From positions 1,597 through 65,596 of the IMG/VR virus record IMGVR_UViG_3300009506_000023: a stretch of 64,000 bases of DNA; one strand, written 5' to 3'. Made by a program: the position numbers and the translations under genes. The DNA comes from a virus. Position 1 is the stretch's first letter; every line of letters starts with the position of its first letter. The notes below the pieces were generated by a model. That model ran no database searches. It was given only the letters and a program-made list of their open reading frames with translations, and had not been told where the DNA came from. This document shows positions 23,261 to 57,530 of this stretch, piece by piece.

Positions 23261-23318
23261 TCGCTTGCATTCTACAATCTAGGGTTGGGGAATACCTAAG
23301 TATAGGGGAATTTTAGCC
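23261..23318. repeat. Conserved ~58-nt intergenic element, copy A
   Basis: CTCCTGCATTTCGCTTGCATTCTACAATCT AGGGTTGGGGAATACCTAAGTATAGGGG. Related copies at 32651, 48297 and 57476. Confidence 0.7.
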
Positions 23319-23978
23319 TTTTTTAACAGAACTAACTTTTTTAGTCTTAGTTACATGGAAAGTTGTCTCTGCCTCTATATTTACACCCTCAGCATGTGAG
23401 ACAATTATCTGTTGGAAGCCCAAATCATTAGAAACCATATTAAGCATTTCTGAGATTTTATATTGTAGAGCAGGGTCAGCATTTCTGAAAGGCTCATCAG
23501 AAAGTAAAGTCTTCCTAACTTCATAATCACAATACTCATCCTCTAAGAGAATATAGGCAATTCTCAAAATATAATCTGCTACATCAACGTAGCCATAACC
23601 TGAACACTCTAATGGGTGCTGCTCTCTTTCTCCTTCCTTAAAAAGTAAGTCGCACTCTGTAGCACCTCTTCTCTCAACCATCCTTACAACAAATTCTGGT
23701 GGCTTCGGTATTGTAGCAGATTTCACTTCTACTGAAGATAACGCCATAGTTGTTATGTTAGATAGGTGTTTCTCTATTTCACTCTGAGTCTCACGAGCAA
23801 CTACCTTGAGGATTTCTTGGGCTTCTTTGGCTGCTATTAAGTCTTTCTCAGCCTCTTCTTTATCAGCCTTGAGTCTCACCAGCCTATCTCTTGTGCTATT
23901 TAGGCTTATAAGCATCTCGTCAACGTATTCTCTTATATCAACTAGTTGCTCTTTCATATTCATTTGAGATTTCCTCAT
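23313..23978 (-). CDS. SbcC/Rad50-like ATPase, C-terminal lobe (Walker B, D-loop, H-loop)
   Basis: N-terminal coiled coil. ECSGYGY is a degenerate signature. LLSDEPFRNADPA matches Walker B/D-loop and QQIIVSH the H-loop. Confidence 0.5.
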   Translation of the reverse strand: MRKSQMNMKEQLVDIREYVDEMLISLNSTRDRLVRLKADKEEAEKDLIAAKEAQEILKVVARETQSEIEKHLSNITTMALSSVEVKSATIPKPPEFVVRMVERRGATECDLLFKEGEREQHPLECSGYGYVDVADYILRIAYILLEDEYCDYEVRKTLLSDEPFRNADPALQYKISEMLNMVSNDLGFQQIIVSHAEGVNIEAETTFHVTKTKKVSSVKKG

Positions 23979-24195
23979 ATAATTTCTTTATTCTTTTGCT
24001 AATATTCTCAAGTTCTGCTTTACCGTCTTCTATAAAAGAATTCATTTCTTCCTTAGAATTAATATCATATGAGTCCTTAAGTTGTTTCATATAAGTCTTT
24101 ATAGCCCCTTGAGATTGAGCCCTTGCCTCTTTTCTCTCTACTATATAAGACTCCATAGTTTCAACTTCGTCTTTTATTCTTTCAATCTCACCCAT
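23938..24195 (-). CDS. Coiled-coil protein, likely the returning coiled-coil arm of the SbcC C-half (frameshifted relative to 23313..23978)
   Basis: 85 aa and entirely heptad-like. Overlaps the next ORF by 41 nt in another frame. Confidence 0.35.
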   Translation of the reverse strand: MGEIERIKDEVETMESYIVERKEARAQSQGAIKTYMKQLKDSYDINSKEEMNSFIEDGKAELENISKRIKKLYEEISNEYERATS

Positions 24196-25102
24196 CTCCC
24201 ATAATCCTTCCTATGAAGTTTTCTGTCCTTTTACTCAAAGCCTCATCCTTCTTTAAAGACTCGACTCGGTTAAAAACTCGTTTCCTATAATCAAGACCTT
24301 TTATCTTAGTCTTTTTCTTTAGGACATCTCTAAGCTCATTGAGCCTTAGATTTTCTTTCTCCTCTTTCTCTACTTCCTCAAAGTCAACTACTTTATCAAA
24401 AGGCTCTATTGGTATAAATACTTCTTCAATTTCTCTTGAGTCTGTATCATATATAAATACTGATGGCCTATGTCTTGCTTGATCTATTCTGCTTCTCATA
24501 AGAGAGCCACAATTAATAAGAATCCTGTCCTTCCACCTGTGAAGAAATGATGTGTGGTTATCTCCACTTACTACAAGGTCATAGCCATAACGTCTTAGGA
24601 AGGTTCCAGCTACTTCGTAATCTTCTTGACCAGCCCAAAGCTTGTCTGCAACTATCATCCTATGAGTTATAAGTATATTCAGCTTATCTTTATCTTGTAT
24701 TTTCGGAACTGGCTTTCCCCATCCAGAGCCATAAACATTGGTTCTTCCACTTAAGAGTGGTATATCGTAAGCCATCCTCATACCAATACCAGATTTTATT
24801 ACACCGTATGGTGTATTAGATAGGTTACTTGTATGGTATCTCATATCGTGCTGACCAGGAACTGAGATTATTATTGGAAGTGCTGGTCTCTTCAAAATAT
24901 CTATCCACCTAACTTTGAAGCTATCGCTTGAGAAATGTTTATCTGTTAGATCACCTGGCTGTAAAATAAATGAGCACTCGAAATGAGCAGCTGCTTCAAG
25001 TATGAATTTTATCTTCTTCTCTTGTGCTAATTGATAATCATCTATCCTACATCTTGGAGTCTTATCTGTTAGGTGCCAGTCACCCGTAATTAAGAGTTTT
25101 AT
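24188..25102 (-). CDS. SbcD/Mre11-like nuclease, probably starting at a non-canonical codon upstream of the track start
   Basis: The frame is open up to a TGA at 25127-25129. It encodes DIKLLITGDWHLTDK...QPGDLTDKH (Mre11 motifs I and II) upstream of the first ATG/GTG/TTG, with RBS GGGAGGTG 6 nt before an ATA codon. Later motifs are GDNH and ITHRMIV. Confidence 0.5.
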   Translation of the reverse strand: MKLLITGDWHLTDKTPRCRIDDYQLAQEKKIKFILEAAAHFECSFILQPGDLTDKHFSSDSFKVRWIDILKRPALPIIISVPGQHDMRYHTSNLSNTPYGVIKSGIGMRMAYDIPLLSGRTNVYGSGWGKPVPKIQDKDKLNILITHRMIVADKLWAGQEDYEVAGTFLRRYGYDLVVSGDNHTSFLHRWKDRILINCGSLMRSRIDQARHRPSVFIYDTDSREIEEVFIPIEPFDKVVDFEEVEKEEKENLRLNELRDVLKKKTKIKGLDYRKRVFNRVESLKKDEALSKRTENFIGRIMGDG

Positions 25103-25103
25103 A

Positions 25104-26210
25104 TCACACCTCCCGCCAGTGTTTTCTCAAAGCACCACATTTAGTACAGTATTCTAACTGGCTCTCTAACTCTTTTAGCTTTTTATCACTTTTATCTATC
25201 TGATTAGAAAGAGATGATATTATTACCTCTGTATTTTTTATCATAGAAGATATATCCATAACATCAAGAACTGCATTATTTATGAAGTTATAATCATTTA
25301 TAAGCTTTTTCACCTCAGATACTTTTGGCTCTAAGGCTATTATAGCATTAGCTTGATCTTCATCTGCCTCCCAGCTCTCTATCATTGTGCGTATATAAAC
25401 AGCTCCACTTATTTCTTCTTCTTTTTTATCACTCTCTTCTATTAGCCTTTTTAAAACCCCTATGGCTGGGAGTATGTGCTCAACAGAGTTATAAGACTTT
25501 ATATTAAGCTCATGCTCACTAATATTATCTTTAATCTCTAAAAGATAGGCTAATTCTGCTTCATCAGAATCGAATGTATCTATTAACTCATCAATTTTCG
25601 CAAGCTTAAGCCTTAGTCTTTCTGCTGTCTTAAATTCAACACTTTCGAGTTCTTTCTCTGTACCCTCTATCTGCTCACCTAAAAGAGTGATTTTATTCGA
25701 CAGGTGTTTGACTATTGTCTTAGCCTTAGATGCTTTCTCGTCTATTATCTTTAGACCTACAACCTTATTGAGTTCAGAAGACACTTGCCCAGGTGTCTTA
25801 TCTATAAGAAAGTATTTATCTTTTTGTGTGAGGATATTATGAGATCGTAGCTTTGTTATTTCTCTTATCTCGTCTGGTACATCTGTTCTTAATGCTACAA
25901 AAGGCTCTTTGTGCTCAGAGGTTATGTAGCCATTAATCGTTCTATTTTTCTGCCTACTTATAAATGACCCTTCACCGAAGGCGATTGATACAGATACTTC
26001 GTCAGCAAGTTTAGCATCATCATTTCTGTATTTATCACCAGCCCCTCTTGGTCTATTCTCAGCAGCCCATTCTACAGCCCTAACAATAGATGATTTTCCA
26101 GAATGAGTACGACCTTTAATTATATTCAATCCAGAAGAGAAGTCAAGTAATGTGTACTTGTGCCCTTGAAAGTTTATGATTTCTATTTGGTCTATTGGCC
26201 AATTAGACAT
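25104..26210 (-). CDS. SbcC/Rad50-like ATPase, N-terminal half (Walker A plus coiled coil, ending at a CxxC zinc-hook-like motif)
   Basis: GRTHSGKSS is Walker A. A ~250-aa coiled coil follows. Terminal ...LEYCTKCGALRKHWREV. Confidence 0.55.
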   Translation of the reverse strand: MSNWPIDQIEIINFQGHKYTLLDFSSGLNIIKGRTHSGKSSIVRAVEWAAENRPRGAGDKYRNDDAKLADEVSVSIAFGEGSFISRQKNRTINGYITSEHKEPFVALRTDVPDEIREITKLRSHNILTQKDKYFLIDKTPGQVSSELNKVVGLKIIDEKASKAKTIVKHLSNKITLLGEQIEGTEKELESVEFKTAERLRLKLAKIDELIDTFDSDEAELAYLLEIKDNISEHELNIKSYNSVEHILPAIGVLKRLIEESDKKEEEISGAVYIRTMIESWEADEDQANAIIALEPKVSEVKKLINDYNFINNAVLDVMDISSMIKNTEVIISSLSNQIDKSDKKLKELESQLEYCTKCGALRKHWREV

Positions 26211-56765: not shown

Positions 56766-57053
56766 CTATAAATCGCTTGGCTTCCCGATACCTGGGAAGT
56801 TGAAATTGCCTTTCCTAACTTCGGCAAGTTCAGCTGCCCTTGCTTTCGGATAGTCTGGGTGCTGACGCTCCTCTTCTAAACAGCTGAAGCATATCCAATC
56901 TGTATTAAACATAGACATAATGTGAGATGAGGATTTCTTGTCACACCTATCACAGTTTTCGTCGGGAAATTCCCTTACAACCAGCCTTTGGAATTTATTT
57001 GTGCTTGGCTTTGACACTTTTCCTCTCCTTTCTGGGTACATAGAAAGACCCAA
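56766..57053 (-). CDS. Zinc-ribbon protein (CDRCDKK...CFSC)
   Basis: 95-aa ORF. Confidence 0.4.
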   Translation of the reverse strand: MGLSMYPERRGKVSKPSTNKFQRLVVREFPDENCDRCDKKSSSHIMSMFNTDWICFSCLEEERQHPDYPKARAAELAEVRKGNFNFPGIGKPSDL

Positions 57054-57216
57054 GTCTTTCTTTTACGTGCTTGTTCTCTTTCCAGCATTCGCTGAGTACA
57101 AACTCATACTCATTAATAGTTGCTTTATAGTAGTTGATTTTCTCATTCAATAAGTAAGAGATAATCAGCACTAATATGCTGGTTATGAGTAGAGTTATTG
57201 GTGCTAACCAACGCAT
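56995..57216 (-). CDS. Small membrane protein
   Basis: 73 aa. WLAPITLLITSILVLIISYLL. Confidence 0.35.
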   Translation of the reverse strand: MRWLAPITLLITSILVLIISYLLNEKINYYKATINEYEFVLSECWKENKHVKERLGSFYVPRKERKSVKAKHK

Positions 57217-57227
57217 CTATCACCCCC

Positions 57228-57404
57228 TTATTCATACTCATCGTTATCTGTGAATACTCCATAGCCATCGTACTCCATACCCTCCATCTCAGTATAGAAT
57301 CCCCAGACTATGTCTATTGCCTTCTTCTCATCTTCTGGTGAGCTACCGACAATCTGGTTAGAGGCAAGCTCAAGGACTATTTTGAGAGCTTCTTTGATCT
57401 TCAC
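57228..57404 (-). CDS. Small acidic protein (58 aa, GTG start), not in the ORF track
   Basis: My manual translation gives MKIKEALKIVLELASNQIVGSSPEDEKKAIDIVWGFYTEMEGMEYDGYGVFTDNDEYE, with RBS GGAGGTG 7 nt upstream of the GTG. Confidence 0.3.
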   Translation of the reverse strand: MKIKEALKIVLELASNQIVGSSPEDEKKAIDIVWGFYTEMEGMEYDGYGVFTDNDEYE

Positions 57405-57475
57405 TCGTTTTCACCTCCTTTTTAAAGAAAATAGTAAAATCAAGAGGATACGCAGAAAATCAGACCTCTGCATTT

Positions 57476-57530
57476 CCTCTACATTCTACAATCTCCTTGT
57501 GGGGAATACCTAAGTATAGGTTGTTTTAAG
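57476..57530. repeat. Conserved intergenic element, copy C
   Basis: CCTCTGCATTTCCTCTACATTCTACAATCTCCTTGTGGGGAATACCTAAGTATAGG. Confidence 0.65.

Follow-up and report, generated by a model that had tools for sequence, protein, structure and literature searches.

Among the described systems that come closest to the element reported here are two from other phages. The promoter-early stem-loops (PeSLs) of T4-like phages are numerous, lie in hyperplastic regions and flank ORFans on both sides, and their promoter, which has been shown to be active, follows the sigma-70 consensus (-35 TTGACA, -10 TATAAT, AT-rich UP element) (PMC2839356, PMC4122927). Stoperators, found in temperate phages with a known repressor, are 13-mers that number more than 20 per genome and are oriented along transcription (PMC9283540). 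We analyzed a 64,000-nucleotide stretch of an uncultivated tailed phage (positions 1,597 to 65,596 of IMG/VR record IMGVR_UViG_3300009506_000023), referred to as the window, in which a short element occurs in three intergenic copies, A, B and C, and in a fourth copy, D, inside dnaE. The copies are real and dnaE-derived, and the intergenic ones contain two short boxes whose sequence and spacing are conserved at a fixed distance from a start codon. We propose, with moderate confidence, that A, B and C most likely represent a promoter cassette of a non-sigma-70 type, which would have arisen from a captured fragment of dnaE and later been duplicated (A and C) and converted in patches by dnaE.

The window was searched with the pattern CTGCATT-N7-CATTCKACAATCT, which specifies 20 bases, using 100 dinucleotide shuffles as the null. 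Four exact matches were found, all on the plus strand (23254, A; 32654, D; 48298, B; 57468, C), compared to a mean of 0.05 in the shuffles. By repeat finding in the window, A, B and C group as a 53-nt repeat family of 79-83% identity, and an nhmmer profile extends the unit they share to ~70 nt, over which we read them as paralogs. No further copies were detected in the window at the level of this profile. The sequence GGGGAATACCTAAGTATAGG is the same in A (23287-23306) and C (57501-57520), a shared run of 20-21 nt where none is expected. Aligned without gaps, D is identical to each of A, B and C at 20-23 of 27 positions, and all 20 positions common to A, B and C are also matched by D. The copies, and the gene that contains D, are as follows.

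23242..23311, minus strand: copy A, with the motif GGTAT-N16-GTAGAAT at 23296-23270
48286..48355, minus strand: copy B, with GGTAT-N16-GTCGAAT at 48340-48314, then a dnaE-like tail, TGTCAGCGAAATGCAGG
57455..57524, minus strand: copy C, with the motif GGTAT-N16-GTAGAAT at 57510-57484
57429..57455, minus strand: degenerate inverted core, tail-to-tail with C, with 20/27 identity on the opposite strand
32628..32720, minus strand: copy D, dnaE amino acids ~828-858, FREIKGVGEVASNEIVECRANAGVFASPEDL, with boxes GGTAG-N14-GTCGAAT; the A/B/C profile matches 32649-32693
31488..35201, minus strand: dnaE coding sequence, 1237 amino acids, with PHP, Pol III alpha, finger, HhH and C-terminal uracil-DNA-glycosylase (UDG) parts

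A preliminary description of this DNA had listed the same four copies, three intergenic and one in dnaE, together with the extension shared by A and C, and its coordinates for B and D are confirmed. The starts given for A (23261) and C (57476) are really at ~23252 (CTCCTGCATT) and ~57466, respectively. C deviates in its middle from the core consensus that was quoted, with TTTCCTCTA in place of TTTCGCT-K-R, and the identity of about 27/30 ascribed to the core of D is higher than the ungapped values above. TTAGGT-N17-TGTAGAATG is indeed present in A and C, and C lies ~45 nt from the ribosome-binding site of the gene that starts at 57404.

For comparison we used five relatives spanning 49-80% amino acid identity: a syntenic relative, REL (IMGVR_UViG_3300035698_011327, 53 kb assembled), and four in which the junction after the homolog of g48387, the gene next to B, was fetched via protein homologs (L026, 80%; L027, 70%; L029, 68%; and L031 from Tara Oceans, 60%). 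Copy D falls within the part of DnaE covered by Pfam HHH_6 (amino acids 800-887), and its complement encodes EIVECRANAG of the HhH region (amino acids 841-850), as had been noted before. The D segment is ordinary coding sequence in the dnaE alleles L002-L007 (62-72% amino acid identity) and L022 (52%), and the protein segment conserved across alleles reads (K)G(I/V)GEVAxxEI(V/I)(E/D/R)CRxxAG. Because the segment is conserved as protein, the D sites of relatives are 21-23/27 identical to A, B and C, about as close as the window's own D, and the L003 allele matches copy C at 90% over 31 nt. Conservation of the segment as ordinary coding DNA in relatives therefore indicates that D is not an inserted repeat, and we take D to be the parental segment in its normal coding role and the evolutionary source of the copies. 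Synonymous identity within dnaE is highest in the intervals at amino acids 843-856, which is not significant by permutation (P ~0.77). D was also considered as an internal promoter of dnaE for a C-terminal (UDG) product and was rejected, as neither a ribosome-binding site nor an in-frame start follows it. Amino acids 1089-1218 of DnaE belong to the uracil-DNA-glycosylase superfamily (PF03167, E 1e-23), a Pol III alpha-UDG fusion that is kept in the relatives' alleles.

Aligned locally to the region around D, A, B and C score 46, 36 and 37 over spans of 31-57 nt, while the shuffle maxima are 27, 25 and 25; for A, homology to dnaE covers 47 nt, up to ...GTTTTC..AGCC. A profile built exclusively from A, B and C matches window D (E 1.2e-4) and the D sites of L003 and L004 (E 1.5e-3). 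A profile built exclusively from six dnaE alleles matches C (E 8e-4), A (E 0.01), L026 (E 0.012), L027 (E 0.027) and also L001 (E 2.8e-5), a phage contig whose proteins show, by tblastx, next to no similarity to the window. Remnants of the DnaE segment are readable in the dnaE-frame translations of A (IVECKRNAGAVFLS), B (IVECQRNAG), C (IVECRGNAE) and L001 (KIVECRANAGPVQ followed by a stop). dnaE is the only gene of the window with paralogous fragments elsewhere, and within dnaE this is true of the D segment only.

Two derived states are found in all intergenic copies and in no dnaE allele. At the first base of an Ala codon the copies have a T (GGTAT/ACTAT) where dnaE has GGTAG, and the spacing between the boxes is 16 nt, not 14 nt. 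These states are shared in all genomes. Taken with the comparisons above, they indicate a single ancient capture, after which the fragment was inherited as an intergenic element. On these sequence comparisons, the origin of the three copies in a captured fragment of dnaE is strongly supported. Capture of a coding fragment had been raised in the preliminary description, where it was set against the promoter reading; the profile matches and the restriction of paralogs to the D segment agree with the capture, and the two readings are compatible, not opposed.

Downstream of the boxes, the tails of the window copies, GCGAA(A)TGCAGG, resemble the window-specific A-N-A-G allele of dnaE. The downstream part in L026, L027 and REL is TGYACASGTGT, and a second copy in REL (REL copy 2) and the L001 copy have GGCCCT-type tails, as in the REL and L007 alleles. 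Occasional patch conversion by the resident dnaE would be the simplest account of these differences. A conserved initial transcribed region, which had been made part of the promoter idea, is not required, since this region differs between lineages; we propose that overwriting of the tail by each lineage's own dnaE alleles gives it that appearance. Copy A resembles a chimera, C-like on the left and B-like in the middle and right (19/25 informative sites, P = 0.08), which suggests that it may be a mosaic of C-like and B-like parts. A further dnaE-derived piece, which is borderline, lies close to C.

57322..57371, minus strand: dnaE-derived piece inside ORF 57228-57404, LELASNQIVGSSPEDEKK versus GEVASNEIVECRANAGVFASPEDLEEK in DnaE

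Relative to dnaE, this piece has a 27-nt deletion that takes out exactly the core. It aligns to dnaE with a score of 33.4 (shuffles: mean 20.6, sd 3.6, max 35) and gives a weak nhmmer match. The ORF after C was itself tried as a DnaE HhH paralog and set aside (protein-level P = 0.17; DNA similarity borderline).

The motif [ACG][GC]TAT-N16-GT[ACT][GT]A[AT]T occurs once and in gene sense at the junction orthologous to B in REL, L026, L027 and L029, and one gene further in L031. Thus, the two-block, promoter-like arrangement that the preliminary description had placed at approximately these positions is kept in all five relatives. In the form nnTAT-N16-GTnnAWT, the motif is present in A, B, C, REL (twice), L026, L027, L029 and L031, with eight different spacers. 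Its distance to the start codon is 81-98 nt in B (~87 nt), C (~81 nt), REL, L026 (~84 nt), L027 and L029. Homologs of g47440, the gene downstream of B, follow the motif in L026 (42% amino acid identity) and L029 (26%), and CCTAGATTGTCGAATG is identical in the window and L026 even though the adjoining g47440 has diverged to the former value. We read fixed boxes at a fixed spacing, with a free spacer and a fixed start-codon distance, as the signature of a promoter, and we take B to be the ancestral, orthologously conserved copy. Two genes of the operon behind B are relevant here.

47440..48228, minus strand: gene downstream of B (g47440), 262 amino acids, no family match, first gene of the operon that runs to the sigma gene
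45452..46009, minus strand: phage sigma-70-family protein, 185 amino acids, 2.3 kb downstream of B and in the same direction

The product of 45452-46009 matches Pfam Sigma70_r2 with 30.6 bits (cutoff 24) and phrog_351, and it scores 32.3 with TIGR02937 (sigma70-ECF), which is under the cutoff of that family. In the window, REL, L026 and L027 alike, the operon continues downstream to a sigma-70-family gene. On the gene strand, a sigma-70 consensus scan called none of the three intergenic copies, and no intrinsic terminator was called at the elements. Additionally, the -10-like box (TCGAAT/TCGATT) in B, D, L026, L027 and REL is without the essential A at -11. A promoter of the sigma-70 type is therefore not supported, and for boxes of another kind the phage's own sigma factor is the obvious candidate reader.

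We propose that the dnaE HhH segment KG(I/V)GEVASxEIVECRxxAG was captured into an intergenic site. A G-to-T change (GGTAG to GGTAT/ACTAT) and a spacer longer by 2 nt would have followed the capture, resulting in the boxes nnTAT and GT(C/A/T)(G/T)A(A/T)T, 16 nt apart, as -35-like and -10-like elements. The boxes are possibly read by the small sigma factor of the phage, whose gene lies in the operon headed by B, and this arrangement would constitute positive autoregulation. B heads the conserved operon from g47440 to the sigma gene, and C heads a block of small accessory genes. A, at the end of the replication cluster, would direct transcription into the late/lysis genes that converge on it, and the product would be antisense RNA or a short non-coding RNA. 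Gene conversion with each lineage's dnaE would have overwritten, in patches, the sequence that follows the -10-like box, and the hairpins that flank B and C could give a terminator/attenuator-plus-promoter layout. From the sequence comparisons we infer that the cassette acts as a promoter, that it depends on the phage sigma factor and that gene conversion has occurred.

The last minus-strand gene (23313-23978) has its stop codon immediately before copy A, which faces the gap between the converging clusters and the 3' end of the late/lysis genes on the plus strand. Downstream of A, there is no ORF preceded by a ribosome-binding site, and no terminator-bounded small RNA could be defined. REL has a tRNA gene at the position corresponding to A. 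The opposing late cluster has a lysis-cassette-like end on the plus strand (22280-23097), which consists of a 72-amino-acid membrane protein (22280-22498), a 127-amino-acid protein with a lipoprotein-like N-terminus (22495-22878) and a 70-amino-acid ORF, all without family matches; copy A would transcribe antisense to these genes.

Copy C lies upstream of ORF 57228-57404 and inside a stretch, 54510-61173, to which the REL match is weak and rearranged. Directly upstream of C, ~1 kb without a convincing ORF (57640-58660) is G/T-rich on the minus strand. Here, at 57685-58659 on the minus strand, 17 copies of nTGnCGT(C/A)GAGnnnTG follow one another at an irregular spacing of 28-171 nt, accounting for 17 of the 19 occurrences of CGT[CA]GAG in the window. 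The region has no Rfam, phage GenBank or REL match; it might be an array of iterons or of binding sites, or encode a sponge RNA. Two inverted repeats link gene-boundary regions in this variable block, one of 26 nt (59449-59474 versus 61472-61497, 92% complementary, arms 2 kb apart) and one of 24 nt (57605-57628 versus 59443-59466, 88% complementary).

Several observations weigh against the promoter proposal. The motif was refined after the sequences had been viewed, so that its expected counts of 0.05-0.7 per locus are post hoc statistics. The boxes do not match sigma-70 and resemble the GGAAT-N18-GTT-like form of ECF-type promoters, and the phage sigma factor is a putative reader of them. The window has only three copies per 64 kb and none before late genes, and the element is thus not the phage's general promoter class. 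Copy A and REL copy 2 (L014 16906-16975) contain the motif but are oriented against the local genes, and in L031 the start codon is 307 nt away; the short, gene-sense upstream position does not hold for these three. Antisense promoters would account for A and REL copy 2. The L001 copy consists of the dnaE-like core only, without the upstream box, and is antisense to its neighbors, and the better-preserved copy in L029 is also antisense. Lastly, the -10-like box of B and L026 doubles as the 3' arm of a long hairpin, and conservation extends to the 5' arm, CATTCGAT, a pattern that fits an RNA structure equally well. The hairpins concerned are listed here.

48309..48383, minus strand: interrupted hairpin spanning the upstream half of B, with the outer stem GGCAUUCGAUU / AUUGUCGAAUGUC
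57530..57607, minus strand: stem-loop directly upstream of C, GGGCACAGAGG...CCUCUGUGCCC, then A-rich UUAAAACAA, no U tract

The element could then be a structured gene-strand RNA, acting as an intercistronic attenuator or terminator, an RNase III-type processing site or an mRNA stabilizer, with the boxes as helix arms. The B hairpin (~75 nt) has a folding energy of -35.9 kcal/mol (z -5.0), and its inner stem (z -4.7) is a 15-bp helix with G-U pairs that are possible only on minus-strand RNA. L026 has the same hairpin architecture (z ~-5) with compensatory changes in the arms of the inner stem, GGTTAGG/CCTAACC in B versus GGTCTAGG/CCTAGACC, and L029 folds a different long palindrome (z -5.0). 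The conservation of the 5' partner extends over the window, L026 and L027. The core of C, together with the inverted partial core, forms a hairpin of ~24 bp followed by the U-rich UAUUUUCUUU on minus-strand RNA (-31.2 kcal/mol, z -6.1), the stem-loop at 57530-57607 folds with -36.4 kcal/mol (z -4.7), and distant Tara relatives have a plain intrinsic terminator at the B-type junction. However, A, L027 and REL keep the boxes and their spacing without significant structure (z -0.2 to +1.1; A, +0.6), and the pairing partner of the core is upstream in B and downstream in C. The hairpins of B, L026 and L029 are also without a U tract, and Rfam 15 yields no gathering-level match in the window and chance-level ones only near A and C. 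We consider a structured RNA unlikely as the explanation of the element and count it, together with neutral relics of dnaE, as a main rival of the promoter reading.

Two plus-strand candidates were discarded. A plus-strand promoter or small RNA, in which the core would precede the hairpin, has inconsistent -10-like hexamers upstream, no terminator at B and C, and a z of +1.0 at A. A small peptide was considered because the plus-strand ORFs of A and C both end in …FYNLGLGNT, but B has a stop in frame.

The copies could also be non-functional scars of ectopic recombination or gene conversion, refreshed from dnaE, with dnaE codons creating the boxes by themselves. The boxes fall on those codons of dnaE that are best conserved (G-I-G, E-V, V-E/D-C), the tails match lineage-specific alleles as described above, and both the mosaic appearance of A and the dnaE piece next to C would be expected of such relics. 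Simple refreshment from dnaE would, however, erase the derived states, the T for G and the 2 additional nt, which every intergenic copy carries and no dnaE allele does. Moreover, the element has stayed at one orthologous junction, with fixed position, orientation and start distance, across genomes that are 49-80% identical at the amino acid level. Neutral descent from dnaE is for us quite unlikely.

A third possibility is that the copies act in trans with dnaE RNA. In the window and in REL every copy is on the dnaE-sense strand, whatever the local gene direction, and REL copy 2 lies within structural genes of the opposite strand. In L001/L010, 28 nt identical to window D are found between two structural genes and antisense to both; these contigs were the only finds in exact-pattern scans of viral, metagenome and genome collections, apart from matches in L009, L011, L018 and L019 that were rejected as chance, with no flank or DnaE similarity. 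No relatives of the neighbor protein in L001 were found, and the L001 copy needs a separate capture or a transfer. Antisense copies in late mRNAs could shut the polymerase off or attack the dnaE of a competitor, with sense copies as decoys, and the tails do follow each lineage's own dnaE allele. B with its orthologs and C are in sense, so they cannot pair with dnaE mRNA, and the complementarity of A and D is broken (39 matches in a gapped alignment of 47 columns); action in trans is in our view very improbable. A related form, in which A, REL copy 2 and L001, antisense in late or structural transcripts, are built-in silencers of the DNA polymerase and the sense copies are promoters or decoys, would explain the similarity to the own dnaE and would serve a late shut-off or as a weapon against co-infecting phages of the clade, but we rate this as improbable, too.

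It is highly improbable that the copies are asymmetric sites for a phage DNA-binding protein, operators or roadblocks in the manner of stoperators, with the dnaE site in the same regulon. ATGCA-N6-ATGCA, with an 11-nt period, is present in A, B, C, D and L001 as tandem AATGYA...AATGCAG half-sites, all copies of the genome share one orientation, and intragenic sites are known for L5 stoperators (PMC9283540). Against this, the half-site part is not conserved in the orthologs of L026, L027 and REL, there are only 3-4 sites, and the scanned ORFs revealed neither a repressor nor an HTH gene. Also, stoperators lose their function when reversed relative to transcription (PMC9283540), and REL copy 2 and L001 are reversed in this way.

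The clade's dnaE has been invaded by mobile elements: the REL DnaE has an in-frame, intein-like insertion of ~285 amino acids at window amino acid ~751, ~90 codons upstream of D (L006 12293-13149), and the L005 gene is split elsewhere into two overlapping ORFs (363-2888 and 2845-5280), the window allele showing neither split nor insertion. REL (L006 22243-22809) and L001 (6061-6907) have similar free-standing HNH/NUMOD-type genes (tblastx E down to 4e-22), the same dnaE segment occurs in two unrelated phages, and Cys845 is invariant at the center of D. Nevertheless, that D is a homing-endonuclease or intein/intron target, with the intergenic copies as ectopic targets or by-products of break repair, is scarcely credible, given that none of seven dnaE alleles is interrupted at D (the insertions lie ~90 and ~375 codons away), that tblastx of the HNH-bearing L001 contig gives no window match to that gene, and that the intergenic copies, instead of being scattered, form a monophyletic set with conserved positions; the homing target entertained in the preliminary description is accordingly not supported. 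A template/variable pair of a diversity-generating retroelement was rejected, as neighboring ORFs contain no reverse transcriptase domain and the copies differ by indels and non-A changes, as was a CRISPR mini-array, since no repeats flank the L001 or window copies. Look-alikes of the Pho box, LexA and NtcA sites and the DnaA box were judged by eye and dropped.

The remaining features of the window are those of the phage at large. Structural genes occupy the plus strand to ~23.1 kb, including a tape-measure gene (2162-7222), and the minus strand carries the genes between 23.3 kb and at least 61 kb, which encode an exonuclease, a UvsX-like recombinase, DnaE, a Thy1-type thymidylate synthase, a ligase, an AAA ATPase and many small ORFs. 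Strong AGGAGG ribosome-binding sites occur throughout, and the window contains no tRNA gene. Positions 38124-58228 are 100% identical to one contig of run SRR14699975, the sole Logan assembly matched; no Logan contigs extend past the window. Among cultured phages the best DnaE is 34% identical, and DNA-level searches gave no cultured relatives; single-protein searches of viral contigs gave no relatives of the genes adjoining A and B. Clade relatives L031-L033 (ENA TARA_SAMEA2623403 and others; g48387 60% identical) come from Tara Oceans marine assemblies, which hints at a marine or aquatic origin of the phage group.

Further long stretches without a convincing ORF lie among the minus-strand genes at 61449-61847 and 62043-63056; the latter starts after an AT-rich patch containing TATAAT, is GC-richer, and has no Rfam match and a folding z of +0.4. 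An 1822-amino-acid ORF (9978-15446), presumably a tail fiber or surface protein, contains ~2 kb of degenerate Ser/Pro-rich repeats (SPSESPS...) at 10300-12200 and has no PHROG match. On the minus strand at 47302-47439, before gene 46897-47301, there is a 13-bp inverted repeat, GTGCTTGGGGCAA ... TTGCCCCAAGCAC, with arms ~90 nt apart, which is unlike A, B and C.

If the promoter reading is true, the element would be a traceable case of promoter birth in a virus, with regulatory DNA made from coding DNA. A ~70-nt piece of an essential gene, copied into an intergenic site, would have become a promoter through no more than one point change and 2 nt added to the spacer, and it would have been kept for a long time at the head of a sigma-factor operon and multiplied in one lineage while exchanging sequence with its parent. 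It would also provide a testable model, the 14-nt versus the 16-nt spacer, of how phages invent and spread regulatory cassettes, as well as a candidate recognition sequence for an uncharacterized phage sigma factor. For annotation, the case is a warning that a "copy" inside a gene may be where a repeat originated and need not be an insertion. The significance is moderate, as these results refine what is known of PeSL-like cassettes and short-homology mosaicism and do not add a new mechanism or kind of system.

Compared to known systems, the element shares with the stoperators of cluster A mycobacteriophages (L5 gp71) its asymmetry, its single orientation, its position in short intergenic spaces and an occasional intragenic site. 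It differs from them in its length of ~70 nt, in having 3-4 copies, some of them reversed relative to local genes, and in that no repressor was found in the ORFs scanned. The lambda promoters pO (OOP RNA) and paQ are antisense promoters at convergent junctions, and pO acts against cII; A and REL copy 2 would likewise start against the 3' end of opposing genes, a likeness of position alone. Promoters of phage-encoded or alternative (group 4/ECF-like) sigma factors often autoregulate the sigma operon. Like them, the element has two short boxes with a kept ~16-nt spacer of free sequence and a GTC/GTA -10-like box, and it lies upstream of an operon encoding a small sigma-70-family protein; unlike them, it has very few sites, none before late genes, and the protein scores below the ECF cutoff.

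Similar to PeSLs (Arbiol et al. 2010, Comeau et al. 2014), the copies are gene-strand intergenic repeats in the ~60-100-nt range that in B and C, though not in A, combine a stem-loop and a candidate promoter, followed by a Shine-Dalgarno sequence and a start codon. In PeSLs, the stable stem-loop serves as terminator or attenuator of upstream transcription, and recombination between copies shows in chimeras, indels and mini-circles. Some copies lie in variable, ORFan-rich regions, and the chimera-like copy A hints at recombination. Unlike in PeSLs, the boxes are not sigma-70-like, there are three copies of which the oldest heads a conserved operon, and the hairpins are without U tracts and differ between copies. 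No gene is enclosed between two copies in the PeSL fashion, and only C lies in a lineage-specific block. The comparison with PeSLs drawn in the preliminary description is fair as a functional analogy but does not extend to promoter type, copy number or ORFan flanking. PeSLs are thus an analogy for the element and not its family, and the derivation of a cassette from a dnaE coding segment would be an origin not described for PeSLs.

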